A DNA stretch of 64,000 nt from Dehalococcoidia bacterium. Lineage in GTDB: Bacteria > Chloroflexota > Dehalococcoidia > Bin125. The notes beneath the pieces were generated by a model. The model was not told the DNA's origin, searched no databases, and worked only from the letters and a program-made list of their open reading frames with translations. A program made the position numbers and the translations under genes. This document shows positions 43,486 to 59,960 of this stretch, in pieces. Location of the stretch: NCBI GenBank assembly GCA_965242565.1, contig OZ251457.1:451891-515890 (forward strand). The letters run 5' to 3'. The first letter of the stretch is position 1. The number at the start of each line of letters is the position of its first letter.

Positions 43486-43561
43486 GGGCCGGTAGCTCAG
43501 GGGTCAGAGCAGGCGGCTCATAACCGCTCGGTCGCTGGTTCGAATCCAGCCCGGCCCACCA
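43486..43561 (+). tRNA. tRNA-Met (anticodon CAT); elongator-type acceptor stem (G1-C72). A lysidine tRNA-Ile cannot be excluded
   Basis: Cloverleaf read by hand: GGGCCGG acceptor, GCTC/GAGC D-arm, anticodon loop CTCATAA, GCTGG-TTCGAAT-CCAGC T-arm, CCGGCCC-A-CCA 3' end; coordinates +/-2. Confidence 0.8.
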
Positions 43562-43582: not shown

Positions 43583-46500
43583 TCAGGCCGCCGACAGCCA
43601 CAACCCCGTCAGCGCCTCCGCCTGCTCGAGCACCGTGTCCGTCGCCCGCTCCTGCTTGTCGGGCGGGTAGCCGTGCTTGCGCAGCACCCGCTTCACCGCC
43701 GTCCGCAGCTTCGCCCGCACCGCCTCCCGATGCGCCCAGTCCAGCGACGCCGAGCCGCGCACCATCTCGACCAACTCCCGCGCGATGCCCCGCAGCTTCT
43801 CGTCGCCCAACACCTCCACCGCGCTCTCGTTGTCCGCCAGCGCGTCGTAGAACGCCAGCTCATCGTCCCTCAGACCGAGCCGCTCGCCCCGCCCCTCGGC
43901 CTCTCGCAGCTCCCGCGCCAGATCGATCAGCTCTTCGATCACCTGCGCCGCCTCCACCGCCCGATTCCGGTAGCGCAGCAGCGAACGATCCAGCAGCTCC
44001 GAGAAGTTGCGCGCCTCCACCACATTCTTCCTGCGCCGCGCCGCGATCTCCCCCTTCAGCAGCTTCTGCAGCAACTCCACCGCCAGATGACGCTGCGGCA
44101 TCCCCCGCACCTCCGCCAGAAACTCATCGGACAGAATCGAGGTGTCCGGCTTGCCCAGCCCCGCCGCGGCGAAGATGTCCAGCACCCCCTGCGACGCGAC
44201 CGCGTTCGAGACCAGCCGCCGCAGCGCGTAATCCAGCTCCTGATCGGCCTGCCCCTCCGCCGGCGAGCGCTTCGACAACGCCGTCCGCACCGCCTGGAAG
44301 AACGCCGCATCGTCGCGGATGCGCCGCGTCTCCTCGTGCGGCGCCGCCAGCGCGAACGCCTGCGTCAACTCCCGCACCGCCGCCAGACACCGCTCCTTCC
44401 CGTCCTCCTGCGCCAAAATGTGCTCCTGCGCCGCCGGCAGCAGCGCCAGACGCTGCTCCGCCGTCCCCCGCCGCCAGAGCGAGCGATCAAACCCGTGAAA
44501 CAGCCCCTCGCAAACCTCGTACTTCTCGACCAGCGCCGCCACCGCATCCTCGTGGTTCAATGTCGTCCGACCCGTCCCGCCGCTCTCCGTGTAGACCGCC
44601 AGCGCCTGCTTCAGGTCGTGCGCCAGACCCAAATAGTCCACCACCCGCCCGCCGTCCTTGTCCTTGAACACCCGATTGACCCGCGCGATCGCCTGCATCA
44701 GGCCGTGCCCCCGCATCGGCTTGTCCACGTACATCGTATGCAGACTCGGCGCGTCGAAACCAGTCAGCCACATATCGCGCACCAGCACGATCCGCAGCCC
44801 GTCTTCCGGATCGCGGAAGCGGTTCGCCAGCGCCTCGCGGCCCGCCTTGTTGCGAATATGCCGCTGCCACTCCGTCGGATCCGACGCCGAGCCCGTCATC
44901 ACCACCTTGATCTCGCCCGCCTCATCGTCCTCGCTGTGCCACTGTGGACGCAACCGCGTCAACTCCGCGTACAGCTCCACGCAGATCCGCCGACTCATGC
45001 AGACCACCATCGCCTTGCCCGACAGCGCCTCCAGCCGCTGCTCGAAATGCTCCACGATGTCCTCCGCAATCTGCCGCACCCGCGGCTTCGCCCCCACCAC
45101 CGCCTCCAGCTGCGACCAGCGCGTCTTCAGCTGCTCACGTTCCGCCGACTCCTCGCCCTCCGTGATCTGCTCGAAATTCGCATCCAGCAGCTCCCGATCG
45201 CCGCGAATGCCCAGCTCCACCAGCCGACTCTCGTAATAGATCGGCACCGTCGCCTTGTCCTCCACCGCCCGCTGAATGTCGTACACGCTGATGTAATCGC
45301 CGAACACCGCCCGCGTATCAGCGTCCCGCTTCTCGATCGGCGTTCCCGTGAAACCCACAAACGACGCCCGCGGCAGCGCATCCCGCATATGCCGCGCGAA
45401 CCCGTCGATGAAATCGTACTGACTGCGGTGCGCCTCGTCCGCTATCACCACGATGTTCCGACGCTCCGACAGCGCCGGCTGCTCCCCGCCCCCGCGCTCC
45501 GGAAAGAACTTCTGAATCGTCGTGAAAATCACCCCGCCCGACGCCCGCCGCAGCCGCGACCGCAAATCCGCCCGACTCTCCGCCTGCTCCGGCCGCTGCC
45601 CCAGCACATCCGCGCAGCGCGAAAACGTCGTGAACAACTGGCTGTCCAAATCGTTGCGGTCCGTCAGCACCACAATCGTCGGATTGCCCATCCGCGCATC
45701 ACGCGCTATCGCCCCAGCGTAAAACGCCATCGTCAGACTCTTCCCCGAACCCTGCGTGTGCCAGACCACCCCGATCCGACGATCCCCCCGCTCCCCGCCC
45801 GCGCGGCCCGTCTCGTAACGCCCGCCCGGCTCCGCGAAGCCCGCCTCCTCCGAAGCCCGCACCGTCTGCTCCACCGCGTGCCGCACCGCGTGAAACTGGT
45901 GATACCCAGCCAACTTCTTCGCCGTCGCCCCGCCGTCGTCCTCGAACACGATGAAATCGCGCACCAGCGCCAACAGACGCGACGGCTCGCACACCCCCTC
46001 CAGCAGCACCTGCAACTCCGGCATATGCGGATCATGCAGCCGCTCGCCCGAAATCGTCCGCCACGGCTTGAACCACTCCATCCCCGCCGTCAGCGTCCCT
46101 AGCCGCGCCCACACCCCGTCCGACACGATCAGTAACTCATTCATCGCAAACAGCGACGGCAACTCCGCCTGGTACGTCTGCAACTGCCGCCACGCCGCCC
46201 ACACGTCCGCCTGCTCGTCGGCCGGATTCTTCAGCTCGATCACCCCCAGCGGCAGGCCGTTCACAAACAGCGCGATATCGAGCCGCCGCAAGTGCTTCTG
46301 CTCCGACACCGTCAACTGGTTCACCGCCAACAGGTTATTCGCCTCCGCCTCCTCGAAATCGAGCGCCCGCGCCTGCGCCCCGCGCACCCGCCCCTCATCG
46401 TCGCGGTACTCCACCGGCACCCCGTCCACCAGCATCCGGTGAAACGACCGGTTGCGCGCCTCCGTCGTCGCCCCCGCCGGCCGCGTCAGCCTGGCCAACG

Positions 46501-46705
46501 CATCCTCCAGCGCCGAGTCCGGCAGCTCCGGGTTCAACTCCGCCAGCGCATCCCGCAGCCGCTGCTCCAACACCACATCCGAAAAATCCCCGCGCTCCGC
46601 CGTCCCCTCCGGCCCAAGCTCCGGCCCGTGCGCCGCCTCCCAGCCCAGACCGCGCAGCCAGCCCAGCGCCGCCGCCTCCACCGTCCCCTCATTGAACGCG
46701 CTCAC
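43583..46705 (-). CDS. hsdR: Type I restriction endonuclease subunit HsdR
   Basis: 1040 aa; helicase motifs ([10 protein letters not shown] Walker A, DEAH-like [10 protein letters not shown]); GTG start overlapping (GTGA) the stop of the upstream 140-aa gene. Confidence 0.9.
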
Positions 46706-47124
46706 GACCCGCCGCCAACCTGACAGGTGTAGGAGATGTCCGCCACCCGCACCGCGCCCAGCGCCACATTGAGAATCAGGAACGGTAGTTGGCCGATCTC
46801 CGTCGTCCGCGCGACCAGCTCCACCTCATCGCCTTCCAGCCGCAGCGAACGCCGCACATCGGCGATCAGCGACAACTGGTAGTCGGTGAGCTCGTCAAAG
46901 CACCGCGCGCGTCGCAGCCAGTCGTGCGCATCGCAGTAGTCGGTCACGACATACTCCCCGTCGCGCTCCAGAATCCAGACTTGCACCTCGTCGCAATCCG
47001 GGTAGAGCAGCGACGTGTTCACGCCGACTGCCCCGTCCGGCGCGGGGAAGAACTCGAACAGATCCGACGCCTCCAGGCGCATCTCCGTGCTCAGCGCATC
47101 CAGCAGGGCCGGTTTGGTCACCAT
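46702..47124 (-). CDS. Hypothetical 140-aa protein 'P1' (cassette gene, copy 1 of 3); no recognised domain
   Basis: [12 protein letters not shown]...[17 protein letters not shown]; paralogs at 47687..48109 and 48669..49091. Confidence 0.55.
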
Positions 47125-47600
47125 CTCGTGCCCCCTTCCGCTCCGTGCAGAATACCCCGATGCGTGAGGTTGATCTCTGCACAGAACTGCCGCCAGACCT
47201 CGCTTGGATCGCCGGCATCGGCTGTGATGTCCGGCGGGACATAAACCCACTGGTCGCCGAACTGCTCCGTCCAGCGGTGCTTGTGGACGCCGCGCGGGCA
47301 GTCGCAACGAAGTTTGGACACGCCAGTGCTGTCGCAAAGCGGGCCGTGGTGGACGACGCCGGGGCCCAGACAGACCCCGACCACTCGGCCTGCGCTCGGG
47401 TGGATTACGTGATAGCCCAGCGCCGCCGAAGCCGGCTTCCGCCAGCCGTACACCCGCAAGCCCCGATCAGGCGTCGAGCCGACGGCCGCCGTGAACCGCT
47501 GCGACCCGCGGTAGCCCGGTGCGAGCGTCCAGCGGATGTCGCCGACGATCTCCTTCGTCGGGTCGGCCAGCATTTCCGCGAACTCTTGCTCAGTGACCAT
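47118..47600 (-). CDS. Hypothetical 160-aa Cys/His-rich protein 'Q1' (cassette gene, copy 1)
   Basis: M(V/I)TEQEFAE(M/L)LADPTKEIVGDIRW ... HH.P.C ... RC.CPRG.HKHRWTEQF; its end overlaps P1's start codon. Confidence 0.5.
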   Translation of the reverse strand: MVTEQEFAEMLADPTKEIVGDIRWTLAPGYRGSQRFTAAVGSTPDRGLRVYGWRKPASAALGYHVIHPSAGRVVGVCLGPGVVHHGPLCDSTGVSKLRCDCPRGVHKHRWTEQFGDQWVYVPPDITADAGDPSEVWRQFCAEINLTHRGILHGAEGGTRW

Positions 47601-47609
47601 TGGGCAAGC

Positions 47610-47690
47610 TCAGCGCGCCGTCTCCCAGCCCAGACCGCGCAGCCGGCCCAGCGCCGCCTCCTCCACCGTCCCCTCATTGAACGCGCTCAC
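47610..47690 (-). pseudogene. hsdR 5'-end fragment (26 codons: [26 protein letters not shown]), copy 2
   Basis: About 90% identical to the first 24 codons of hsdR at 46705; GTGA overlap with P2, exactly as at the P1-hsdR junction. Confidence 0.6.
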
Positions 47691-48109
47691 AACCCGCCGC
47701 CAACCTGACAGGTGTAGGAGATGTCCGCGACGCGGACGGCGGCGAGCGCCACATCGAGGATCGCGTAGGGAATGTTCTCCACTTCCTGCACGCGCGCGAC
47801 CAGCTCCACGCCCTCGCCCTCCAGCGTGAGCGAGCGGCGCACCCCGTCGATCAGCGCCAGCTGCTCTTCAGTCAGCTCGTGGAAGCAACGCGCGCGGCGC
47901 AGCCAGTCGTGGCCCGCGCCGCGATCTGTCACGACGTACTCGCCGCCGCGCTCCGACACCCAGACCTGCACCTCTTCGCGATCCGGATAGAGCAGCCTGG
48001 CATTGACGCCCACATCGTCCGGCGGGACCGGGAAGAACTCGAAGAGATCCGTGAGCTCGACGCTCCGCGAGCTGGTCAACTCGTCGATCAGGGCGGGCTT
48101 GGTCGCCAT
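47687..48109 (-). CDS. Hypothetical 140-aa protein 'P2' (cassette copy 2)
   Basis: MATKPALIDELTS...[17 protein letters not shown]. Confidence 0.55.
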   Translation of the reverse strand: MATKPALIDELTSSRSVELTDLFEFFPVPPDDVGVNARLLYPDREEVQVWVSERGGEYVVTDRGAGHDWLRRARCFHELTEEQLALIDGVRRSLTLEGEGVELVARVQEVENIPYAILDVALAAVRVADISYTCQVGGGL

Positions 48110-48582
48110 GGTTCGTTCCCCTCCGGTTCCACCAGAATACCCGAGTGGGAGACATCGATCTCAGCGCAGAACTGCCGCCAGACGGCCGTCGAGTCGGTCA
48201 CATCAGCCGTGATGTCCGACGGCGCGTAAATCCACTGGTCCGCAAACTGCTCGGTCCAGCGATGCTTGTGCGTCCCGCGCGGGCAGGCGCAATGCCGCTT
48301 CCCCGCGCGGGTGTCGCGGCAGTCTGGCAGATGGTGGACCTCAATGCCCAGACAGAGCCCGACAATCCGCCCGACGCCCTCGTAGATGACCGAGTAGGAG
48401 AGCCGCGCAAGACGCGGGTTTCGCCACGCTTCAACCCGCAGCGGCCAATCGGACTGCGAGCGCACGTGCGCAGTGAACTCGTGCGCGCCGGGATGAGATA
48501 TGCTGGCCGCCCACCGAATGTCGCCGACGATCTCCTTCGTCGGGTCGGCCAGCAGCTCGGCGAACTCTTGCTCAGTGATCAT
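48088..48582 (-). CDS. Hypothetical 164-aa Cys/His-rich protein 'Q2' (cassette copy 2)
   Basis: About 55% identical to Q1 with the same Cys/His spacing; 22-nt overlap with P2. Confidence 0.5.
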   Translation of the reverse strand: MITEQEFAELLADPTKEIVGDIRWAASISHPGAHEFTAHVRSQSDWPLRVEAWRNPRLARLSYSVIYEGVGRIVGLCLGIEVHHLPDCRDTRAGKRHCACPRGTHKHRWTEQFADQWIYAPSDITADVTDSTAVWRQFCAEIDVSHSGILVEPEGNEPWRPSPP

Positions 48583-48591
48583 TGGGCAAGC

Positions 48592-48672
48592 TCAGCGCGC
48601 CGTCTCCCAGCCCAGACTCTCCAGCCAGCCCAGCGCCGCCGCCTCCACCGTCCCCTCATTGAACGCGCTCAC
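48592..48672 (-). pseudogene. hsdR 5'-end fragment ([26 protein letters not shown]), copy 3
   Basis: Same junction structure as copy 2. Confidence 0.6.
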
Positions 48673-49091
48673 GACCCGCCGCCAACCTGACAGGTGTAGG
48701 AGATGTCCGCCACCCGCACCGCGCCCAGCGCCACATCGAGGATCGCCGTCCCCACATCGTCGACATCCGTCACCCGTGCGACCAGCTCGACGCCTTCGCC
48801 TTCCAGCACCAGCGAGCGTCGCACCTCGCCGATCAGCGCCATCTGCCGCTCGCCCAGCTCCTGAAAGCACCGCGCCTTGCACAGCCAGAGCCAGGCGTCG
48901 CCGCCGTCTGTCACCACGTACCCGCTGTCCTGCTCCGTCACCCAAACCTGCACCTCATCGCGATCCGGGTAGAGCAGCGATGTGTTCACGCCGACCGACC
49001 CGTCCGGCGCCGGGAAGAACTCGAACAGGTCCGAAGCCTCCAGCCGCACCCCCGCAGCCAGCGCATCCAGCAGAGCCGGCTTGGTCGCCAT
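48669..49091 (-). CDS. Hypothetical 140-aa protein 'P3' (cassette copy 3); only a 50-nt remnant of its Q3 partner survives, overlapped by the rloC-like 3' end
   Basis: [14 protein letters not shown]...[17 protein letters not shown]; upstream remnant ...[19 protein letters not shown] matches the Q1/Q2 C-termini. Confidence 0.55.
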   Translation of the reverse strand: MATKPALLDALAAGVRLEASDLFEFFPAPDGSVGVNTSLLYPDRDEVQVWVTEQDSGYVVTDGGDAWLWLCKARCFQELGERQMALIGEVRRSLVLEGEGVELVARVTDVDDVGTAILDVALGAVRVADISYTCQVGGGS

Positions 49092-49139
49092 CTCGCGCCC
49101 CTTCCGGTTCCCACAGAATACCCCGATGCGTCACGTTGA

Positions 49140-51524
49140 TCACCTCGCAGAGCTGCCATCAGGCGGTGATCGGCTGATCTGCGTCTGTTGCGGCTTGGCG
49201 AACTCGAGAACGCGTTCAACGAAGGGCCTCAACTCGCCGTCCGAGGGCCTCTCGTCCGCGTGCTGCTGGTTTGAGTCATGATGGAACCGATGAGCGTACG
49301 TCATGAGCTCATCGAGCTCGTTGATCTGTTGCGCCGACAGGATCGGACTTCCGTGTTTAGCGCGCCTCTCGCACTCCTTAATGAACCGACCAAACCTTTC
49401 TCCCGGGCCGAAGTCGCCCGGGCAAGTGACGCGGAGGTAGTGTTCGAGGTAGGGGCGCAACGACTTGGCGACTGCCACCAAATCATCGTCGTCTGTCTCC
49501 AGGTACCGCGTCAAACGCAGATACGTTCGATCGTGATCTGTGATGAGGTCGTTATTGACATCCCACGGCCTCAGAGAGGAACCGTCGCTGCTCCGCGCGA
49601 TCTTGATTGCCGACCGCGATTCCCGGTAAGGGCGACCAGCAGTCTCCCAGATGTCGCACAGGAACCTCTTGTTGTGAGACAGTACGATCACCTGCCCGAC
49701 ACGGTCGAGAAGACCAGCGATCTCCGACACCGTCACCGAGAATCGGCTGGTGTCGAGACTGGAGATTGGGTCATCCATCACGACCGTCAGGTCGCTAGGA
49801 TTGGGATCAAGCTCGATCGCCACCAAGAACATCGAGAACGCCAACGCGTTGCGGTCACCTGCGCTCAGAGTATTGCCGAAGGAATACTCACCCGCAGGCA
49901 CGTCCTGGTTCGTGATGGGCACGAGCTTTCCGTTGATTTCGAGTGCGTAAGTTGTCGTCGGACCGCCCGTCTGGCGCGGCTTGAGGGACTTTACTCGAAA
50001 GCCGGCACCAAACCGACTCAGGTGGTGGTTCAGCCTCTCCTCGTATTGCGGAAAGATCTGATTCCGGAAAGCAGCGAGAGCTTGACTGGCGCGTTTTTGT
50101 TCGTCATTCGTTCGCGATTTGGCTGCGCTTTCGTTTAGGTAAGCGACGGCCAGGTCGACGATGTCCGGAGAGTAGCGCGCCTGAACTGCAGTTAGCCGCG
50201 CTATCTCGTCTTTGATGGTGCCGGCGTTCGTGGACGCTGCTTGGTCGAGGAAAGCCGCGATCGTGGTGTTGGCCCGCTCGATTGTGCGGTTTGCGGAGGT
50301 GACGCCCGCTCGAAGCTCGTCATAGCGAGCAAGCGCGACGCGAGCCTCGTCATCGATGGTGAGGGTGTCGAGTGGTGCAGCCTGTTTCGTGCGAAAGTGG
50401 CGGATGATCGCGGTGTAGGCCTCGTCCCACGCGCCAGCAATCGCTGGAGCGTCGACTTCGATCAGATCGACCTCACACACTTCACGCCAAAACCGCATGC
50501 GCTTGGTGGTTTCGGTCACTGTGCGCTCGAACGCGGTCTGAGCCTTTCGGCCATGTGTTTCATCGATGTGGGTTCGTTCGTCTTGGATCGATGATTTCAG
50601 GTCGCGATAGGCGGCGCTGAAGTAGGAACGGTAGTGCGCGAGCATTACAGACGAACCAATAGCCTGCAAGCAGAAGGGGCACGTCGCTACATCGTCAGCC
50701 TGCGCCGACTGTTGTAGGTACGTTGTGCCTTGGTCTAGCCACCGCTCGCCGTCCTCGCCAAGTTCATCCGCGTGGTCAGCAATTTGTTTTGCGGCATCGG
50801 CGTCGAGTTCCGATATGTCGCGACGCAAAACACGCTCTATCTCGTTGAGATCGAAAGTGGCGGTCGAGAGTCGCCCGGGCGTTGGTGCTTTGCTGATTTC
50901 GTCAGCGCGTTCTGCCGCTGCCTGTAGCTGGCGTTGATGGCGAAGTGCATCGTCGACGTTGAGCTCGTCGGTGAGGTTGCAGAAGCGTTCGATCGCGTCG
51001 CGGCCAGCGAGCGACGACCGAAGGTCGGCAGGAACGGCGTCACGGATCTGTTCCTCCAGCCGGCGTAGCTCTGCGTTGTGCTCTTTCAGCCGGTCGTTCG
51101 TTCGCTGGACGGTTCGATTCAGGCTGACGCCTTGCTCGCCCAGGATGAGTTCGTGGAGAGCTTGCCTATGGGCGTTGTGGACCTCAAGGCCAGAGCAGAC
51201 ACTTTCAGCGACAAACTGTTCATCGAAGACCTTGAGCGACGTCAACGGCGGAATTTTCCAAGCACCATCGGCGAATACTGCGCCGCCCTCTTCGCCCCGC
51301 AGCGTGATCACGACCACCGGCGGGTCACTCACGTCGATCCGTTGGCGCTCGACGATCGCTGTTGCATTGCCCTTGGCCAACGACCGAAGGACCTCGGAGA
51401 GAGTGGTCTTACCACGGCTGTTATCGCCGTAGATCACGGTCAGCCGTTTCAGGGGAAGCGAGGCACCGTCGGTCACAGCCTTGAATTGGCCGATGTTGCC
51501 GAGGAAATCAATTGTCTCTAGCAT
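49140..51524 (-). CDS. AAA_13-type ABC ATPase with a coiled-coil CxxC zinc hook; RloC-like (putative anticodon nuclease family)
   Basis: Walker [10 protein letters not shown] near the N-terminus; long helical middle containing [12 protein letters not shown] (CxxC); signature-like [11 protein letters not shown]; Walker [12 protein letters not shown]; 794 aa; embedded in a type I R-M locus; low GC. Confidence 0.5.
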
Positions 51525-52828
51525 TGTGAGACTCTCCCTGTGGACTCTTGGATCTCTCCGGCAGTCGCCAGCAGTTGTCGCGACAGCGAGTTGCGGACGA
51601 CACTGATCGCCGCCGTATCGGTCCCTGCCTTCGTCGCCCGGGCGATCAAAGGGCCGACCTCAGCCGCGAAGCGAGAAGAGGCTGGGGTGGGCGGAACGGC
51701 GACGACATAAGACGCGACCGCAGCCGGCGGCACGCGCTGCCGCCCGCTCGTGCCGGTCATGCTCTGGATGGCGAACTCGCGGAACGGCTCGCTCCGAGCG
51801 AGGCAGTAGGCGAACTCCGGCGGCAGCGGCGGCTTGGGTCGCAGCACGATGTACTCCGTTGAACCCCAGCCTACCTGACCATCCTCCAGAAAGTCCACAT
51901 AGGCCGTCTTCCCGTTCTCCAGGCACGGCGTGATCCGCGCCACGAGCGTGTCGCCGTTGATGAAGCGCGTTCCCGAGCCGAACGGCCGCTCCGTCACCGC
52001 GTGCGGCACGTGCCCGTGCGTGGGCATGTCCGCCATCGCCAGGTGCGGCGCGGCCTCGCCCTTCTTGAGCGACCGCCTCGGATTGACCTCCACCACATCC
52101 CCAAGCGCGGCCACGCGCCAGCCGGCGGGGATGGGGCCGAGCGCCGACGCCTCCAGGCGCTCGGGGAACGCCTCGTAGAGCTGCGCGGGCAGCCCCGGCA
52201 GCGACTCCCCCGAGCGCCAGCGGCCCTCCTGCTTCGCCCGCACCGGCTCGAAATCCACAAACCACGAGCGAAACAGCGCCCGCGCCATCTCCTCCAGCGT
52301 CCCCGCCATCCGACGGTTCAACTCAATCTTGTCATCCAGACACCCCAACACCCCCGCAATCCGCCGCTGCTCCCCCATCGGCGGCAAGCGCAGTTTGATA
52401 CTTTTGAGCGCCGTGCCGGACAGCTCGCGGAACGTGGAACCCGACGAGTGCCGCTCCAGTTCTTCGGTGTTCACCGAAAGCCAGTAGTACAGGTATTCAC
52501 CGAATGCACCGTCGCGAGGAATCAGCGACCGGAAGCCCTGATTGGTCGCGATCGGGTTCTTGGCGATCGCGACGTATCCAACGGGCGCTCGCGTTGAGAG
52601 CAGTACGGCGCCGGCGGGCAAAAGCTTGGCCGAACAGCTGTCGAGTCCCTGTTGCGTGAGATTCCGCTCCCCGCGAGCAATGTAGCGATCATGCGGCCCC
52701 GAAAGGTCTTTGGGCGTCACCCACGGTATGTCGCCGCCGAAGTTGTCAGGGTCTTTCGTTGACGGCGTAGAGCCGCCCACGATGTCGGCGATCTCGCCGA
52801 TGGTCACTTCAGTCCAGCTAGCCGTCAT
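51518..52828 (-). CDS. hsdS: Type I R-M specificity subunit HsdS (two target-recognition domains)
   Basis: 436 aa; two TRD halves separated by the central conserved helix ([24 protein letters not shown]...); C-terminal conserved helix. Confidence 0.8.
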
Positions 52829-53109
52829 TTGAACTCCTCGTGATCGGGCGTCCGCATGAGCGCGAGGACATCGGCTCGCTCATACTCCACATCGCGCTTC
52901 GCAGCGACCGAGCCGTGGCGTCCGAAGAACCAGTCGCCGCCGGTGTCGAGCTCGACGTTGAGCACGCGAATCCGCTCAGCCGCCACATCGTCGAAGCCGT
53001 CCTCGTACCCGTTGACCACGACGCGCATCCCGCTCGGATACTGCGAGAGGTGCTCGATCAGTTCGCCCACCGTCATCATGGCGCATCCCTCGGATGAGGC
53101 GCTCCCCAT
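52825..53109 (-). CDS. Small hypothetical protein (about 84-94 aa) between hsdM and hsdS
   Basis: Start trimmed to MGSASS / MMTVGEL so it does not overlap the upstream ORF; ATGA overlap with the hsdS start. Confidence 0.35.
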
Positions 53110-53185
53110 CGCAGCGTCGCTTGGAACGACTTTACCACGAGACACAGAATTGCGGTCGTGGACCTCCTCGTTCGGACCGACGCAG

Positions 53186-54160
53186 TCATGCGAACTTGAC
53201 CCAAGGTCCTGGGAAGCCTTGCTTCGGAAAGTCCATCGGTGGTTCCTCGCCGCGGGCCTTGCCTTCGAGATCATCGATGGCAGCTAGGTAGCTCCCTCTA
53301 CCCGACATGCAGAGCCAAGGTTCTGGGCCGATCACGTCGCCGTTCGCTGCAACGTACATCTGAGACAGGAGCCTCCTGAGCTCGCCGAACGCTTGCTCGC
53401 TCCGTTGCCAGCCTGTAGGCCGTGCGGACTGTAGACGAAACCCGTTGTCGTACACGACGCTGACGGTCGCCCAGAGCTCGTCCGTCTCTTCATGGACCAC
53501 TGGCTCCGTGCGGAGAGAGACGATCTTTGGAGCTGGATGGCGAGTGCGCATCTGGTCGGGAATGCCAAGGTCGGTCCAGCGGGCTATGCGATAACCAGAG
53601 GCTGTTTCTGTGGGGAAGATGCCCATGCAGCCGATCTGGTGTGCGAGGTCGAGGACATGCCGTGTGCTGAAGATCATCTGCTCCCCAGGTTCGAACCAGC
53701 GCAGAACTTCGCACTTGCCGCAATGCTCTTTCGTGGCCTGTCCGTGGGCATGGATGAGGTCGTTGCGGATGTGACGCAGGTCGTTCATCACGTTGATCTG
53801 CGGAGGGATGCCTACGGGACCGACAGCGGCTTTGAACTGCGGCCGGAATCCATGTTCCCAGCGGCTGTAGACCTCGACGATCCATGCGCGGTAGGCGAAC
53901 TGTTCCACTGCACCATCCCGCTCGAGATCCTCCAGCGGATGACGGTCAAGGACATCTGGTTGACAGTCCAGGTAAGACGGCTTCAGCGGGACGCGCATAC
54001 CGGCGTTTAGCGTTTCCGGAGTCATCGTGCTGTACCACTGCCGCTGTTCGTCGCGCACAAACTCGAGGCCGTGGAGAGTTGCGAAGAGATGACGGGTCGC
54101 TCTTGTGATGTCGTAGTAGAGCATCCCTATCTCCTCTCTCATTCGCTGCTCGTCAGCCAC
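53186..54160 (-). CDS. Hypothetical 324-aa protein with a HEPN-like Rx4HxH motif (RHIRNDLIHAHG)
   Basis: Motif read from the translation; lies between hsdM and hsdS, where Abi/HEPN genes are commonly embedded; low GC. Confidence 0.4.
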   Translation of the reverse strand: MADEQRMREEIGMLYYDITRATRHLFATLHGLEFVRDEQRQWYSTMTPETLNAGMRVPLKPSYLDCQPDVLDRHPLEDLERDGAVEQFAYRAWIVEVYSRWEHGFRPQFKAAVGPVGIPPQINVMNDLRHIRNDLIHAHGQATKEHCGKCEVLRWFEPGEQMIFSTRHVLDLAHQIGCMGIFPTETASGYRIARWTDLGIPDQMRTRHPAPKIVSLRTEPVVHEETDELWATVSVVYDNGFRLQSARPTGWQRSEQAFGELRRLLSQMYVAANGDVIGPEPWLCMSGRGSYLAAIDDLEGKARGEEPPMDFPKQGFPGPWVKFA

Positions 54161-54317: not shown

Positions 54318-55874
54318 TCACTTGCCACCCTCCGCGGGGAAGCCGAGCGACTGCAGATTGGCCTCAATCTGCGCATCGAGCCGCGCCGCCTCAGCCTGCT
54401 GCCCGCGCCACTGCGCCGCCAGCCGCCCCATCTTCTCCGCAAACGGCTCGCCGTCGTCCGCCTGCGGCTCCACGCCCACGTAGCGCCCCGGCGTGAGCAC
54501 GTAATCCTGCGCGCGCACCTCGTCGAGCGACGCGCTCTTGCAGAAACCGGGCGCGTCCTCATACGCGCCGGCGCCCTCCTCCCCTCGCCATGCGTGGTAG
54601 GTATCCGCGATGCGGCGGACATCCTCGTCGCTCAGATCGCGGTGCGTACGATCCAGCATGTGCCCCAGCTTGCGCGCGTCGATGAACAGTATCTCGCCGC
54701 GCCGGTCGCGCATCCCGCCGCCGTGCCGCCGTCGCGCCAGAAACCACAGGCAGGCCGGAATTTGCGTGGTATAGAAGAGCTGCCCCGGCAGCGCCACCAT
54801 ACAGTCGACCAGATCGTTCTCGATCAACCGTCTGCGGATCTCCCCTTCGGCTGATTGCGCCGTCGACATCGAGCCGTTGGCCAGCACGAAACCGGCCACG
54901 CCGCGCGGCGAGAGGTGATGCACCATATGCTGCACCCAGGCGAAGTTGGCGTTCTTGGCCGGCGGCGTCCCCCAGCGCCAGCGCTTGTCCGCGCTCAGCT
55001 GCGCCGCGCCCCAGTCCATATTGAACGGCGGGTTGGCCAGGATGAAATCCGCCCGCAGGTCCGGATGCCGATCGTTGAAGAACGTATCGCCCTGCGCGAT
55101 GTTGCCGTCGATCCCGCGAATCGCCAGATTGATCTTCGCCAGCCGCCAGGTCGTGTAGTTCGACTCCTGGCCGTAGATCGAGATATCGTTCTGCGCGTCG
55201 CTCGGCGACTTGCCGCCGTCGCCGTTGCCCGTCGCGTGCGCGCGGATGAACTCCACCGACTGCACGAACATCCCGCCCGATCCGCAGCACGGATCGTACA
55301 CCCGCCCCTTGTATGGTTCGAGCATCTCGACCAGCAGCCGCACCACGCTGCGCGGCGTGTAAAACTCGCCGCCCCGCTTGCCCTCCGCGCTCGCAAACTG
55401 CGCGAGGAAGTACTCGTACACGCGCCCCAGCACATCGGTCGAGCGCGCGTCCTCGGTGCCGACCGCGATGTTGCTGATCAGGTCGATCAGCTGCCCCAGC
55501 CGCCGCTTGTCCAGCGCCTCCCGCGCGTAGTCTTTGGGCAGCACGTCCTTGAGCGACGCATTGTCGCGCTCGATGGCCAGCATCGCCTGGTCGACGGTCG
55601 TTCCGATCGTCGTCTGCCGCGCCGCCCGCTGCAACACCCGCCAGCGCGCCTCTTCCGGCACCCAGAACACGTGCTCCCCGCGATACTCGTCCGGGTCTTC
55701 CGGATCGGCCCACTCTTCGTGTTCCAGCTCGGCGCGGCGCTCCTCGAAGGCGTCCGAGATGTACTTGAGGAAGATCAGGCCGAGCACGACGTGCTTGTAC
55801 TCCGCGGCGTCCATACTGCCGCGCAGCTCGTTGGCGGCCGCCCACAGATCGGCTTCGTGCTGATTCGCGCTCAC
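54318..55874 (-). CDS. hsdM: Type I R-M DNA methyltransferase subunit HsdM
   Basis: HsdM N-terminal domain ([34 protein letters not shown]); SAM motif [10 protein letters not shown]; catalytic NPPFN; GTG start overlaps (GTGA) the stop of the upstream aminotransferase. Confidence 0.85.
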
Positions 55875-57055
55875 GACGACACCTCCCGCAGCGCCGCCGC
55901 AAACCCCGCCGCAGCCCCCTCCAGCTCCCACTGTTCCACGCAGTAGGAAATCCGGAAATGCCCCGGCATCCCGAAACCGCGCCCCGGCACCACCAGCACC
56001 CCGTGCTCCTGAAGCGCCTCCACCATCCGCAGCTCATCCTCCACCGGCGACTGCGGGAACATGTAGAACGCCCCCTCCGGCTTGCGCACGCTGTAGCCCG
56101 CGTCGGTCAGCACGCCGTACAGATAGTCGCGCTTCTTCTGGTACTGCCCCACATCGATCGTCGCCTCCTGGAGATTGCGCACGAGGTGCTGCATGATCGC
56201 CGGCGCGTTGACGAAGCCCAGCACGCGGTTACAGAAGATGAAGGCGTCCATCAACTCCGCGCCGCCCTCGTACTCCGGATGCAGCGCCAGATAGCCGATC
56301 CGGTCGCCCGCCAGCCCCAGGTCCTTGGCGTGCGACGTCACCGTAATCGTCCGCCGGTACGCCTGCTGCGGAAACGGGTACTGCTGATCGTCGTAGATGA
56401 TCTTGCGGTACGGCTCGTCGCTGACCAGAAAGATGTCCGTACCGAACCGCTCGCACGCGCGATCCAGCAGCTCCGCCAGCGAGTCGATCACCGAGCGCGG
56501 GTAGATCGCGCCCGACGGATTGTTGGGCGAGTTCAGGATCACCAGCCGCGTGCGCTCGCTCAACCTCTCCTCCAGCTCCGCCAGATCCGGCGTGAAGTCC
56601 TCGCCGCAGCTGATCACCACCGGCTGCGCGTCGCGCCCCAGAATGTAGAACATGTACTCGCCGAAAAACGGCGTGAGGATCACGATCTCGTCGCCCGGGT
56701 TGCAGAGCGCGCGCACGATCACGTTCAGCGCCGCCGCCGCGCCCACCGTCATCACGATGTTGTCCGCGCGATAGCCCAGCCCGGTTTCCACCGAAAGCGC
56801 GTCGGCCACGGCCTGGCGCGTGTCGGGATAGCCCGCGTTGGGCATATAGCGGTGCGCGCCCGGCTGCGGCGTCTCCGCGAAGCGGCGCAGCTCCTCGAAA
56901 AATTCCGGCGGCGGCTCGGCCACCGGATTGCCCAGCGAGAGGTCGAACACGTTCTCCGCCCCGCGCTCCGCTCTCAGCGCGATGCCCAGCTCGAACATCC
57001 GCCGAATCCACGAGCTGTCCTCCATGTGCCGTTGTACGTCCGTTGCGATGGTCAT
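55871..57055 (-). CDS. Class I/II PLP-dependent aminotransferase
   Basis: 394 aa; [11 protein letters not shown] motif; PLP-lysine context [16 protein letters not shown]. Confidence 0.8.
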
Positions 57056-57176
57056 GGCGCTCTCCGCGTCGTCGTATCGAGTGCTGTGCGCAGCTGCCGG
57101 CGGCTCATTGATACGCTCCCCCCGGCAACGCGAGGGTATCCGACGCCGCCTGGGGCGTCGCCGGTCGGAGGCCGCG

Positions 57177-58283
57177 ATGCGCTCGTTCACGCGAGAAGAA
57201 ACGCGCCTGCTGCGTCTCGATGCGCAGGGCCTGGGCGAACTGGGTGCCAGCCGCTGGGCGACGCCGGCCGAGGTCGCTCGCGGCTGCGGCGGCGTCCAGT
57301 CGCAGGATCGCATCGGCGGCCTGCTCGCCTTCCGCGCCCGCTCCTCGGGGCTGACCGCCGCGCAGGTCGAGCGCGCGCTGTTTGAGGAGCGCTCCATCGC
57401 CCGCACCTGGCTGATGCGCGGCACCCTGCACACCGTCGCCGCCGCCGACCTCCGCTGGCTGCTCGCCCTGCTCGGCCCGGAGATGGACCGCAAGGCGCTC
57501 AAGCGCCGCGCCGACCTCGGCATCGACGACGACATCCGCGACGCCGCGCTGGCAACGATGCGAGCGGCGCTGGCGGGCGGCGCAACGCTGCCCCGCGCGG
57601 AACTCGTCGAGCGTGTGCGCGAGGCCGGGCTGCCCTCCGAGGGCCAGGTCGTCCCTCACCTGCTGCGCGCCGCCTCAATGCGCGGCCTGATCTGCTTCGG
57701 GCCGACCCAGGACGGCGCAGAGACGCACGCGCTGCTCGACGACTGGCTGGCGGACATCGCCGACACCCAGCCGCCTGATCCCGGAGCCGAACTCGCCCGC
57801 CGCTACTTCGCCGCCTACGGCCCCGCAACGCAGGCCGACTTCCGCTTCTGGTCGGGCCTCTCCGGCGCCGACGCCCGCGCCGCCTTCCGCGCCATCGAGG
57901 ACGAACTCGAAGAGGTCAAAGCCGACGGCAAGCCGATGTGGATGACGTCCGGCCGCGACGCGCCCGCCGACGCGCCGCTCTCCGTCCGCGTGCTCGGCCC
58001 GTTCGACCCCTACGTGCTCGGCTACGCGAAGCGCGAGCTGGGCGCGTCCGAGGATGCACTGCGGCTGCTGCACCGCGGCGGCGGCATGATCCCGCCGATC
58101 GTGCTGGCCGACGGCGTGCTGGTCGCCGTCGCAACCCGCCGCCGCACCGCGAGCGGCATGCGCTTCACGCTCAACCCCGTCGCCCGCCTCACCAGTCAAA
58201 TCCGCGCCAGCCTCGACGCCGAACTCGCCGACATCGCCCGTTTCCTCGGCGAACCCGCGACTTGGGAGGTGGAGTCGGCCTAG
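57177..58283 (+). CDS. Winged-helix DNA-binding domain protein of the YcaQ/AlkZ (DUF1006) family (putative crosslink-repair DNA glycosylase)
   Basis: Length and conserved ...RTWLMRGTLH... and GPFDPYVLGY segments, typical of this family. Confidence 0.5.
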   Translation: MRSFTREETRLLRLDAQGLGELGASRWATPAEVARGCGGVQSQDRIGGLLAFRARSSGLTAAQVERALFEERSIARTWLMRGTLHTVAAADLRWLLALLGPEMDRKALKRRADLGIDDDIRDAALATMRAALAGGATLPRAELVERVREAGLPSEGQVVPHLLRAASMRGLICFGPTQDGAETHALLDDWLADIADTQPPDPGAELARRYFAAYGPATQADFRFWSGLSGADARAAFRAIEDELEEVKADGKPMWMTSGRDAPADAPLSVRVLGPFDPYVLGYAKRELGASEDALRLLHRGGGMIPPIVLADGVLVAVATRRRTASGMRFTLNPVARLTSQIRASLDAELADIARFLGEPATWEVESA

Positions 58284-58397: not shown

Positions 58398-59960
58398 ATG
58401 CCAGACAGACGATTGCTCGAACTGTGGGGCCAACTCCAGGGCAAGAAGCCGCACTACGCCCACTTTCTGACTGAGGTCAGTCTGGCGAACATTCGCGGGA
58501 TCACGGACCTGCGGGTGCTGTTGGACTACCCAGTCAGCGTGATCGCCGGCGGCAACGCGAGCGGCAAGACCACGGTCTTGCTGGCGGCGGCATGTGCATA
58601 CCGTGTTCCCAACGCAGGCGTGAAAGACTTCGTGCCCTCAACGTTGTTTCCGGATTATCGACCGAAGGTCGGCGAGCGGGGAGATGAACGCCGGACGGTG
58701 ACGATTGACTTCGATTACGCCACGCCAGAGGGCCGACGCGCGATGCGTTGGCGCCGCGCGAGAAGCTGGAACCGCAGCTTCTTTGGCCGACCGGGGGGGC
58801 GCCAGCCGACCCGCCGAGTCTACCTGCGCACGCTGAGCAACCTGGCCAACCCGTCGGAAGTTCGCGGTGTGCTGGGCATGTCGCAGGCAACGACCGCACC
58901 GAACGAACAGCCGCTGACGGCGTTGCAAATCGACTTCGCCCAGAAGATGCTGCCGTTTCGTTACTCGGAAGTCGTTGACCTCACCAGCGGGCGAAAGAAT
59001 CTGCTGTTCGCCGCCCAAGAGGGCGGCGCCGCATACTCGGAGCTGCACATGGCGGCGGGTGAGCGCGCGATCCTCCGGCTGTCGCAGGAAATCGCCCAAC
59101 TGCAAGGTGCGCTCGTGCTGATCGATGAGGTGGAAGCCGGCTTGCACCCGTGGGTGCAGCATCTGCTGATGCTCCACCTGCAAGAGCTGGCTTTGCGTAA
59201 TGAACTGCAAGTCGTCGTCACCACGCACAGCCCGGTCGTGCTCGACTCGGTGCCTCGGAACGGCCGTATCTTCCTGGAGCGCGTCGACGATGGTTCGGTG
59301 CATGTCAGGCCGCCGTATCGCGATGTCGTGCAGAACGCGCTCTACGGGCGCTCCGACGACGCGCTCAACATCCTCTGTGAAGATGAGATCGCCGAGGCCA
59401 TGCTGCACGGTGTCTGCGACCGTGTCCTGCGGGCCGAACGAATTCGCCCGGAAACGGTCCGCATCGGGCGCGACACGGGAGCCGATGAGTTCCCGATGCA
59501 CGCGGCGGCCTTTCGCAAGTTTGGACAGATCGAAAACTTCGTGTTCGTTCTCGACGGTGACCGCCGCGACAGCGCGGTTGTGGATCGCGTGAAGAGCGAA
59601 GCGGGAAGCGCATTCCCCGTGCTCTTTCTGCCCAGGCGAGAGGCCCCGGAATGCTGGGCCTGGGAACGCCTTTCGGCATGCGTGGACGATCTGGCCGGGC
59701 CGCTCGGCATCGCCGCGGCCGACCTGCGCGATCTGCTCCGCCTGCAAGATCAAACCTACGCGTCGGCTACGGACAAGCCCGGCGAGATCGCCAAGGCGAA
59801 GCTGCGCGCGATCGGCGACCAGACCAATCGCTCCACAGCTGATGTCTGTCGTCACGTCGCCGCATCTGAAACCGATAAAGCGGACAGCCAAATCCAGCCG
59901 CTGGTTGCCGGGCTGCGCTCGGCGATCGAGGCTTGGCGCGCTGAGCGTGGCGGTTCCTAA
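58398..59960 (+). CDS. OLD-family nuclease (N-terminal ABC ATPase plus C-terminal TOPRIM), stand-alone (class 1)
   Basis: Walker A GGNASGKTT; signature-like MAAGERAILRL; Walker B LVLIDEVEAGLHP; H-loop TTHSP; TOPRIM-like E (ILCEDEIAE) followed by DGD (FVFVLDGDRRD). Confidence 0.6.
   Translation: MPDRRLLELWGQLQGKKPHYAHFLTEVSLANIRGITDLRVLLDYPVSVIAGGNASGKTTVLLAAACAYRVPNAGVKDFVPSTLFPDYRPKVGERGDERRTVTIDFDYATPEGRRAMRWRRARSWNRSFFGRPGGRQPTRRVYLRTLSNLANPSEVRGVLGMSQATTAPNEQPLTALQIDFAQKMLPFRYSEVVDLTSGRKNLLFAAQEGGAAYSELHMAAGERAILRLSQEIAQLQGALVLIDEVEAGLHPWVQHLLMLHLQELALRNELQVVVTTHSPVVLDSVPRNGRIFLERVDDGSVHVRPPYRDVVQNALYGRSDDALNILCEDEIAEAMLHGVCDRVLRAERIRPETVRIGRDTGADEFPMHAAAFRKFGQIENFVFVLDGDRRDSAVVDRVKSEAGSAFPVLFLPRREAPECWAWERLSACVDDLAGPLGIAAADLRDLLRLQDQTYASATDKPGEIAKAKLRAIGDQTNRSTADVCRHVAASETDKADSQIQPLVAGLRSAIEAWRAERGGS

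Follow-up and report, generated by a model that had tools for sequence, protein, structure and literature searches.

An RloC-type gene inside a type I restriction-modification operon of a Dehalococcoidia bacterium

In the prr locus of Escherichia coli, prrC lies between hsdS and hsdR. PrrC proteins (E. coli prr, EcoprrI, type IC) combine an ABC ATPase with a C-terminal R/E/H nuclease domain in ~340–416 aa, without a coiled-coil/zinc-hook insert. RloC is a widespread family in which a Rad50-like ATPase is joined to an RNA-cleaving domain that halts translation when phages attack. The RloC proteins of Geobacillus kaustophilus (GkaRloC) and Acinetobacter baylyi (AbaRloC) contain ABC motifs, a helical insert with a C-x-F-C motif, and a C-terminal R-x3-E...H arrangement. 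Wobble-nucleotide-excising tRNase activity, zinc responsiveness, and a nuclease-switching DNA-dependent ATPase have been shown only for these two proteins, and the hook and ATPase motifs are regarded in the RloC literature as an internal switch; hook mutants of GkaRloC are hyperactive. Davidov & Kaufmann (2008; PMC2610378) recognized RloC orthologs of 658–897 aa by their ABC ATPase motifs, a CXXC motif, and an anticodon nuclease (ACNase) triad, the last defined as C-proximal Arg-X3-Glu-X36-52-His. Mutation of the triad abolishes GkaRloC activity, and linkage of RloC to both type I restriction-modification (R-M) and ArdC was already noted in that study (PMC2610378). The PrrC/RloC clade of HEPN proteins has been described as atypical (PMC3710099).

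We analyzed a stretch of 64,000 nucleotides from a Dehalococcoidia contig (OZ251457.1; hereafter, the window), in which a preliminary description had placed an RloC-like ATPase within a type I R-M operon. The corresponding ORF (49140..51524, on the minus strand, as are all features below) starts with ATG and encodes a 794-aa protein composed of an ABC/Rad50-like ATPase head, a helical insert with a CxxC hook, and a C-terminal HEPN-like putative nuclease domain. All motif strings quoted in that description were found in its translation (residues 28–49, 280–287, 553–563, and 581–591). The location within the operon was likewise confirmed, by Pfam or by sequence. hsdM (537 aa, 54318..55931) matched N6_Mtase (E = 4.5e-108) together with HsdM_N, and hsdS (436 aa, 51518..52828) matched Methylase_S (E = 1.2e-38). 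hsdR (1040 aa, 43583..46705) was identified from its translation and its 88.9% nucleotide identity to hsdR of a homologous locus, L081, whose product has the HSDR_N, ResIII, and T1RH-like_C domains. Along the minus strand, the genes follow one another as hsdM, two ORFs of unknown function, hsdS, the RloC-type gene, an array of P/Q cassettes, and hsdR. The start codon of the RloC-type gene overlaps the hsdS stop codon in a 7-nt junction (ATGCTAG) and is preceded by a Shine-Dalgarno-like GGGAGAG. A promoter/terminator scan yielded no signal exceeding the shuffle expectation. The gene thus occupies the same slot between hsdS and hsdR as prrC. Since an RloC gene inside a type I R-M operon is a known arrangement, it is ordinary in this respect, and such embedding represents a minority situation among RloC genes.

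The protein matched Pfam AAA_13 (PF13166) with 151.2 bits (E = 6.5e-44) against a cutoff of 36, a difference indicating that the match is not due to chance; the family search proposed in the preliminary description was therefore positive. The best PADLOC profile was PDC-S06 (E = 1e-71), a computational candidate without a described mechanism, in which residues 1–698 were aligned with profile positions 1–705 of 784. Because the last ~80 profile positions remained unaligned, the C-terminal domain differs from that of the PDC-S06 seed family. The PADLOC PrrC model matched residues 554–627 only, corresponding to the signature/Walker B region (22 bits, E = 1.7e-5), and the PADLOC LmuB models also matched (8e-14). 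An NCBIfam search of the protein yielded no family-level match, and a PDB sequence search with the protein and the family profile retrieved only Rad50, RecF, and transporter heads, with no solved RloC or PrrC structure.

BLASTP aligned residues 1–773 with a 770-aa plasmid protein of Rhodoferax ferrireducens T118 (E = 1e-85, 30% identity), and all motifs fell into register. We equated this protein with entry #39 in Table S1 of Davidov & Kaufmann (2008) based on the organism, length, and helicase flank, not on an accession. Conservation was evaluated over 58 homologues with 28–93% identity. All three features used by Davidov & Kaufmann are present in the window protein and invariant across these homologues, and its length falls inside the published RloC range. 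Furthermore, hhalign placed the W-x3-G...CPFC...HY pattern of the family on WVREG...CAFC...HF of GkaRloC (E = 2.6e-4, probability 42%), the latter being an OCR-derived fragment covering roughly residues 121–480. The RloC-like call of the preliminary description is upheld by the AAA_13 head, the ~390-aa helical insert with an invariant CPFC, the invariant R-x3-E...H triad, and the full-length alignment to the Rhodoferax protein taken as an RloC ortholog. Judged from its sequence, the protein belongs to a distinct RloC subfamily of ~765 aa, characterized by CPFCxQ and RFHHDTN.

The ATPase head contains a Walker A/P-loop, GDNSRGKTT (residues 33–41; 51402..51428), in which G38 and K39 are invariant. 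The ABC signature (residues 553–563; 49836..49868; S554, G556, and D557 invariant) is the region matched by the PADLOC PrrC model and by Rad50 PDB chains. It is followed by the Walker B motif and D-loop (residues 581–591; 49752..49784; D584, D585, P586, S589, and D591 invariant) and by the switch (linchpin) histidine of the ABC ATPase, H617 (49674..49676), which is invariant within LSH. The arrangement is similar to that of GkaRloC, and the triad positions are numbered almost alike, with K39, D584, and R690/E694/H749 here corresponding to K44, D572, and R692/E696/H737.

The head is split by a helical insert (residues 117–504; 50013..51176). In the AlphaFold2 model (mean pLDDT 87.4), DSSP assigned long helices to residues 117–163, 392–431, and 456–504, with shorter ones between them. 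The only CxxC of the protein lies in ATCPFCLQ (residues 280–287). This CPFC (C282–C285; 50670..50681), a putative zinc hook, is modelled within a hairpin loop flanked by helices; C282, P283, and C285 are invariant, and the motif aligns with ECAFC of Geobacillus RloC and CPFCGQ of the Rhodoferax protein. In contrast to classical RloCs, there is no His 5–8 residues ahead of the CxxC. The best PDB structural matches of the model were Rad50/SMC head-plus-coiled-coil structures, and Lamassu LmuACB and JetC were also among the matches. As in Rad50/SbcC/SMC proteins, the ATPase fold is interrupted by a helical arm bearing a CxxC. Unlike in Rad50/SbcC, the arm is far shorter and modelled as a bundle of several helices, not as one long antiparallel coiled coil, and the C-terminal nuclease-like domain is an addition. 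No Mre11/SbcD-type partner is adjacent, as the flanking hsdS and P/Q genes carry Methylase_S, DUF1828, and DUF6978. The insert also distinguishes the 794-aa protein from PrrC.

A C-terminal nuclease region of about 250 aa had been anticipated; the stretch following H617 measures ~175 aa. Within it, residues 637–778 (49191..49616) were modelled as a β hairpin plus five helices (pLDDT 83.9) and constitute a putative HEPN-type RNase (anticodon nuclease) domain. The model weakly resembles the HEPN fold. The top PDB match in Foldseek was the HEPN protein 2hsb (prob 0.98, TM 0.62 by target), but with E = 0.24; the HEPN toxin 8xdj and then Csm6 (5yjc) came next. When the isolated domain was searched against Pfam and PADLOC, the only match was a 13.7-bit fragment of PDC-S06, and PrrC was not matched.

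The segment R690-x3-E694-x3-R698 (RPYLEHYLR; 49431..49457) provides the first two putative triad residues and an E-x3-R motif. All homologues have R690 and E694, at least 90% have R698, and the R690/E694 segment aligns with VRLFLEGF of the Rhodoferax protein. The third putative triad residue is located at H748-H749 (RFHHD; 49278..49283), where H749 is invariant and H748 is present in at least 90%. The Arg/Glu/His triad, for which the preliminary description had recommended a check, was thus found as R690-x3-E694...H749, invariant in the 58 homologues. The spacing from E694 to His (x53/54 to H748/H749) is 1–2 residues longer than the published X36-52, and the residue preceding the triad histidine is His, not Ser as in published RloC. 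The E694-x54-H749 spacing is identical in the Rhodoferax protein taken as the listed ortholog. The helical C-terminal domain and its E-x3-R (E694...R698) are features shared with the HEPN RNases, including MNT-HEPN toxins, Csm6, and the RloC/PrrC clade of Anantharaman et al. (2013), and MNT genes adjoin the close homologues L085 and L081. The domain differs in that no canonical HEPN R-x4-6-H motif can be seen (R746-F-H748-H749 gives R-x1-2-H), that the fold match falls short of significance by its E-value, and that it is joined to an ABC ATPase instead of forming a separate protein.

Based on these features, the product of this gene, internal to the type I R-M operon, is probably an abortive-infection effector of the RloC family, consisting of a Rad50/SMC-type ABC head, a ~390-aa CPFC arm, and a ~140-aa PrrC/RloC (HEPN-type) domain with R690/E694/H749. 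We infer RNase activity, the tRNA substrate, zinc binding, and the trigger by analogy with the RloC family. In the proposed mechanism, two protomers would share one zinc ion through their CPFC motifs, and the RNase would be kept silent by the ATPase and hook until a phage-induced disturbance flips the ATPase. The signals would likely be DNA ends or breaks detected by the head, and the co-encoded Hsd complex may pass them on. The RNase would then cleave tRNA anticodon loops without a metal cofactor, so that translation would halt and the infection would be aborted.

Alternatively, the putative nuclease could be held inactive mainly by binding to HsdMSR, in the manner of PrrC, and released when a phage anti-restriction protein inactivates the complex, with no autonomous sensing of DNA breaks through its own hook and ATPase. 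We consider this unlikely, although several aspects of the locus are consistent with it. The gene lies between hsdS and hsdR with overlapping stop/start codons, in the slot that prrC fills in the E. coli prr locus, and the stop codon of the L081 homologue also abuts the hsdR start. The family is a large one, comprising 2,247 clusters at E ≤ 1e-30. R-M-linked members group in clades, including that of the window, the linkage being clade-stable. HsdS is the most frequent upstream neighbour (directly upstream in 11 of the 74 sampled loci), hsd genes occur within 10 kb in ~20 of 80 sampled loci, and ArdC-like anti-restriction genes adjoin some members (ArdC-N downstream in 3 of 76); these linkages, both noted for RloC in 2008, also agree with the RloC assignment. 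However, only ~15–25% of the sampled members reside in type I R-M loci, and the remaining ~75–85% of loci have no adjacent hsd gene, which indicates that an R-M silencer encoded in cis is not a requirement of the family. The invariance of the hook and ATPase motifs, the internal switch of the RloC literature, also argues against external silencing, as does the match to the PrrC profile, which is local and of 22 bits.

Downstream, the 3' end of the RloC-type gene meets an array (46630..49097) of diverged P (DUF1828/PDC-M24B) and Q (DUF6978/PDC-M24A) cassettes, which was delineated by repeats D1–D4, Pfam, and PADLOC and extends between the RloC-type gene and hsdR. The hsdR 5' end is repeated in every cassette. 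A recent tandem duplication of the three P/Q units was rejected, as the copies of these units are only 72–82% identical. A remnant of a third Q gene at the end of the RloC-type gene, estimated at 50 nt in the preliminary description, is real and overlapping, but measures 65 nt (49098..49162). This element (repeat family D3), aligned with the Q1/Q2 tails and with loci L083, L001, and L085, repeats the 3' tail found in both full Q genes, as a third copy in register (spacing 985/981 nt, 74–78% identity). Its Q frame gives 21 residues and an in-frame stop, the Q1 counterpart being VWRQFCAEINLTHRGIL. The final 23 nt of the RloC-type ORF fall within this element, and the last four codons (SSAR*) and the stop of the ORF are Q-derived. 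The possibility that the element is a mere P 5' leader was rejected, as the DUF6978 and PDC-M24A profiles reach into the corresponding stretch of intact Q proteins.

It had further been suggested that insertion of the RloC-type gene truncated this third Q gene and post-dated the cassette array. The comparison with L081 lends no support to this scenario. L081 contains an 81%-identical homologue at the same chromosomal site, has no P/Q array, and the stop codon of its RloC-type gene directly abuts the hsdR start. Window and L081 show uniform nucleotide identity along the operon (hsdM 87.9%, hsdS plus RloC-type gene 86.5%, hsdR 88.9%), which indicates that the RloC-type gene was co-inherited with the operon and that the array is the indel. 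The same Q-tail-plus-P junction occurs in distant loci, namely L083, L001 (where the RloC-type protein is only 44% identical), and L085 (there, away from the RloC-type gene). The low GC content noted in the preliminary description is strong for the RloC-type gene (GC 59.1%, GC3 69.1%) and orfY324 (GC3 69.8%), but only mild for orfX149 (GC3 76.7%) and hsdS (81.7%), compared with ~88% for hsdM and hsdR. The homologues in L081, L085, and L001 are also low in GC, and the family gene is below the flank GC in 57 of 77 loci; being common to the family, low GC does not date an insertion here. A recent low-GC insertion was thus rejected on the basis of the uniform L081 divergence and the family-wide base composition. 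In these sequence comparisons, the variable element is the P/Q array, not the putative nuclease gene.

The breakpoint lies within a 12-nt microhomology, CCGTCTGGCGGC, common to the 3' end of the L081 RloC-type gene and the Q gene, which suggests that recombination or deletion took place there. A junction motif, GTCTGGCGGC, is common to the P/Q cassettes and the 3' end of the RloC-type gene. A more far-reaching and quite doubtful reading would treat the slot between the RloC-type gene and hsdR as a cassette-exchange site, where recombination at GTCTGGCGGC and the hsdR 5' copies adds, deletes, or swaps PDC-M24 cassettes while the overlapping stop/start chain to hsdR is kept. In that case, the nuclease, the PDC-M24 pairs, and Hsd would work together as a single co-translated defence with several layers, in which the nuclease would guard the R-M complex in the manner of PrrC.

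It appears very improbable that the protein is not a nuclease but an SMC/LmuB-like DNA-sensing ATPase with a regulatory or partner-binding C-terminal domain, the effector lying elsewhere, for example in the P/Q (PDC-M24) genes or HsdR. The matches to the LmuB models and the presence of LmuACB and JetC among the structural matches would fit such a protein, as would the failure of curated profiles to recognize the C-terminal domain and the E-value of 0.24 for the HEPN fold match. Against this, R690, E694, and H749 remain invariant in 58 sequences down to 28% identity while neighbouring positions vary, a pattern typical of catalytic sites, and they form the PrrC/RloC triad pattern that is essential in GkaRloC. 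The sole near-significant fold match is HEPN, and in most of the family P/Q and hsd genes are both missing from the neighbourhood.

The RloC-type gene is intact, with a complete reading frame and every conserved motif kept. The notion of an inactive, decaying passenger left after recombination at the Q junction, which would draw on the remodelled 3' end with its Q-derived last four codons and stop and on the low confidence of the last 15 residues (pLDDT < 50), is scarcely credible given the intact 794-aa frame, the conserved family C-terminus (..FVxRxLxFxRP) retained upstream of the altered tail, and the identical tail in the 93%-identical homologue P0001.

Taken alone, the gene matters little, as RloC nucleases have been described and are very common, and reports from 2005–2008 already placed some of them in type I R-M loci. 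The analysis provides a confident annotation for a gene that standard pipelines label only "AAA family ATPase", and names a putative catalytic triad (R690/E694/H749) and hook cysteines for a ~765-aa subfamily known from sequence. The R-M-embedded clade may offer a convenient place to ask whether the restriction complex can govern RloC-type nucleases, as it does PrrC.

The RloC-like gene (49140..51524, minus strand) encodes, as read from its ORF and translation, a 794-aa protein with an ATG start. The other genes of the type I R-M operon lie on the same strand: hsdM (54318-55931; N6_Mtase, 4.5e-108), two ORFs of 324 aa (53186-54160) and 149 aa (52825-53274), hsdS (51518-52828; Methylase_S, 1.2e-38), and hsdR (43583-46705). 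The hsdS stop overlaps the start codon of the RloC-like gene (ATGCTAG), and GGGAGAG lies just 5' of that start. A scan between the operon genes found no promoter-like or terminator-like sites above shuffle expectation. The two ORFs between hsdM and hsdS had no family match in Pfam, NCBIfam, or PADLOC. The GC3 of the 324-aa ORF (0.70) is as poor as that of the RloC-like gene; at the same slot, L081, a locus with an 81% identical homologue, carries a HEPN (NTase_sub_bind) and MNT pair instead.

The AAA_13 assignment in the preliminary description was borne out by an HMM check against the Pfam family (151 bits; cutoff, 36). The top PADLOC profile was the candidate system PDC-S06 (1e-71, residues 1-698). 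The LmuB, PbeC, and PrrC profiles gave partial matches only, the last of them (22 bits) confined to the signature/Walker B stretch, and NCBIfam offered no model of its family. Among 5.8 billion proteins searched, 113 relatives were found, with identities from 93% (P0001) and 81% (P0002) down to ~28%, most of them 764-767 aa long and bearing the JGI name 'wobble nucleotide-excising tRNase'. When 1.84 billion cluster representatives were searched with a profile, 2,247 clusters matched at E<=1e-30, and the looser cutoff of E<=1e-3 raised the count to 11,332; the family is therefore large.

The four motif strings quoted earlier are all present, at residues 28-49, 280-287, 553-563, and 581-591, and ATCPFCLQ (280-287) holds the sole CxxC of the protein. 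Conservation was taken from an alignment of 58 homologues (A1). Its invariant columns coincide exactly with the functional positions: G38/K39 (Walker A), C282/P283/C285 (hook), S554/G556/D557 (signature), D584/D585/P586/S589/D591 (Walker B/D-loop), and H617 (switch histidine). The C-terminal Arg/Glu/His triad, which had not been verifiable by eye, was located at R690, E694, and H749, all invariant in A1. Conservation is at least 90% at R698 and H748, resulting in the pattern R-x3-E-x3-R ... H-H (RPYLEHYLR ... RFHHD).

RloC orthologs are defined as remote homologues of PrrC, 658-897 aa long, and candidates were screened for ABC ATPase motifs, a CXXC lying in a helical insert, and the triad Arg-X3-Glu-X36-52-His (Davidov & Kaufmann, PMC2610378). 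The key residues of Geobacillus kaustophilus RloC (GkaRloC) are K44, D572, and R692/E696/H737, compared with K39, D584, and R690/E694/H749 in the window protein. Table S1 of the same study includes an ortholog of 770 aa from Rhodoferax ferrireducens T118 with a helicase-like gene at its flank (PMC2610378). On the T118 plasmid NC_007901, a helicase-related gene is followed 3.5 kb downstream by the gene for a 770-aa 'AAA family ATPase', a protein that we take to be this ortholog, judged by organism, length, and flank rather than by an accession cross-reference. Residues 1-773 of the window protein align with it at 30% identity (BLASTP, E=1e-85), with Walker A, CPFC, the signature, Walker B, LSH, R-x3-E, and RFHHD in register and the same E-to-H spacing. 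A GkaRloC fragment read by OCR off Suppl. Fig. S1 aligned with the family profile precisely at the hook motif (W-x3-G...C-x-F-C...H-[FY]), as a modest match (E=2.6e-4, probability 42%). The AAA_13 match, the CxxC hook, the triad, and the full-length alignment with the Rhodoferax protein agree with the RloC-like identity proposed at the outset, and membership in the RloC family is well supported.

In the full-length AlphaFold2 model, which is confident (mean pLDDT 87.4), the head consists of strands and helices; long helices span 117-163, 392-431, and 456-504 with shorter ones between them, and CPFC sits in a hairpin loop. Its best PDB matches were the heads of Rad50, SMC, JetC, and LmuB (E 1e-8 to 1e-5); neither by sequence nor by fold was a solved RloC or PrrC found in the PDB library. 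Modeled separately, residues 628-794 (pLDDT 83.9) form five helices preceded by a beta hairpin, and the top PDB match was the HEPN protein AF_0298 (2hsb; probability 0.98, TM 0.62 by target, E only 0.24), with the HEPN toxin 8xdj and Csm6 (5yjc) lower in the list.

We consider it probable that the protein is an RloC-family effector with RNase function. Its C-terminal part would be a metal-independent RNase, with R690, E694, and H749 as the predicted catalytic residues, under the control of a Rad50-like ATPase that bears a zinc-hook arm. By analogy with GkaRloC and Acinetobacter baylyi RloC (AbaRloC), the activated protein would cleave tRNA anticodon loops and arrest translation; for the window protein, we infer the substrate, the zinc binding, and the trigger.

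The main alternative is that the restriction complex encoded alongside it controls the protein in a PrrC-like manner. The operon position favors it, as does the clade-stable R-M linkage: R-M-linked members cluster in a neighbor-joining tree, where the window groups with the loci L083, L081, L085, and L001. Many family members, however, have no R-M neighbors. Among 80 genome loci from many phyla, with homologues of ~37-44% identity, type I genes lay within 10 kb in ~20 (tblastn with the window Hsd proteins), mostly in the order hsdM-hsdS-gene-hsdR. A Pfam census of immediate neighbors found HsdS upstream in 11/74, HsdR downstream in 4/76, ArdC-N downstream in 3/76, and otherwise a miscellany. 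For the published orthologs, R-M linkage was reported in 8/73 and ArdC linkage in two (PMC2610378). We regard PrrC-like control as a minority possibility. A non-nuclease, SMC/LmuB-like role is improbable because the triad is invariant, and a decaying gene is more improbable still because the reading frame is intact.

Neighbors of the hsd-unlinked members among L001-L080 include ArdC-N (3), GmrSD (2), resolvases, a TrwC relaxase, and TIR and patatin domains, which is a typical mobile-element and defense-island setting. A 124-aa minimal nucleotidyltransferase (NTP_transf_2/Polbeta; L085 9630-10004, L086 2053-2427) overlaps the start of the 837-aa homologue P0003 (56% identical). An MNT beside the putative HEPN-like nuclease domain of this relative suggests antitoxin-like control by nucleotidylation.

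Between the RloC-like gene and hsdR lies the P/Q array (46630-49162, minus strand), ~2.6 diverged direct units of ~983 bp with 72-82% mutual identity. Each unit contains Q (DUF6978; PADLOC PDC-M24A, 2e-39), P (DUF1828; PDC-M24B, 7e-16), and a copy of the hsdR 5' end, namely its first 27 codons together with the 12 nt upstream of them, closed by a stop (mini-peptide ...R*). Overlapping stop/start codons (GTGA, ATGGTGA) chain most successive array genes.

The preliminary description held that the RloC-like gene was inserted after the array formed, truncating the third Q copy. The remnant is real: the last 65 nt of Q (49098-49162, minus strand), in the promoter-proximal unit, share 23 nt with the 3' end of the RloC-like ORF, and their Q frame meets a stop at the second codon. 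Comparison with the relatives speaks against the proposed order of events. At the equivalent site in L081, between the aminotransferase gene and DUF192, the order is hsdM, HEPN/MNT pair, hsdS, RloC-like gene, and hsdR; the P/Q array is absent and the stop of the RloC-like gene abuts the hsdR start. Nucleotide identity between the window and L081 is uniform (hsdM 87.9%, hsdS plus the RloC-like gene 86.5%, hsdR 88.9%). The gene/Q-tail/P junction recurs in L083 (93% identical) and in L001, a Dehalococcoidia MAG whose homologue is only 44% identical; L085 has an equivalent module that is not adjacent to its homologue. These truncated Q tails with P (L083 2650-3616, L001 12340-12843, L085 17297-17777) share a nearly identical 5' boundary with the window, which suggests that one ancient deletion spread along with the module or that the breakpoint is recurrent. 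The low GC is likewise real (GC 59.1%; GC3 69.1% versus ~88% in hsdM/hsdR). The homologues in L081, L085, and L001 are also compositionally distinct, and the gene falls below its flanks in 57/77 loci; low GC is therefore a family trait that dates no insertion here. Insertion of the gene after the array is not supported.

The breakpoint falls in a 12-nt identity (CCGTCTGGCGGC) between the 3' end of the RloC-like gene, in its L081 version, and an internal Q site. The conserved C-terminus of the family is intact, and the Q-derived sequence supplies only SSAR*. In the most economical reading, the RloC-like gene was inherited jointly with the hsd genes, and the array was gained, or lost in L081, through recombination at the microhomology and the hsdR 5' end.

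The R-M island is bounded by tRNA-Met (CAT; 43486-43561, plus strand), 22 nt from the hsdR stop and with DUF192 beyond it, and by the aminotransferase gene (about 55871-57055, minus strand) at its far border. The equivalent sites in L081 and L085 hold different defense cargo, so the site looks like a variable defense hotspot beside a tRNA gene. Just outside, a 520-aa AAA_21/AAA_15 ATPase of the AbiEii/OLD-like class of ABC ATPases (58398-59960, plus strand) may be a further defense gene; it adjoins an AlkZ-like DNA glycosylase gene (56928-58283, plus strand), and the pair is kept in L085.

RloC has already been published, as have the minority of R-M-embedded members and the assignment to HEPN, and the ~765-aa subfamily carries a generic name in annotation pipelines. 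Less usual than the RloC-like gene is the array of diverged PDC-M24 cassettes, which repeat the hsdR 5' end and share a junction motif: GTCTGGCGGC or a closely similar sequence is present where the Q tail starts, at the 3' end of P, and, in L081, at the 3' end of the RloC-like gene. The array may represent a recombination-driven cassette slot upstream of hsdR.
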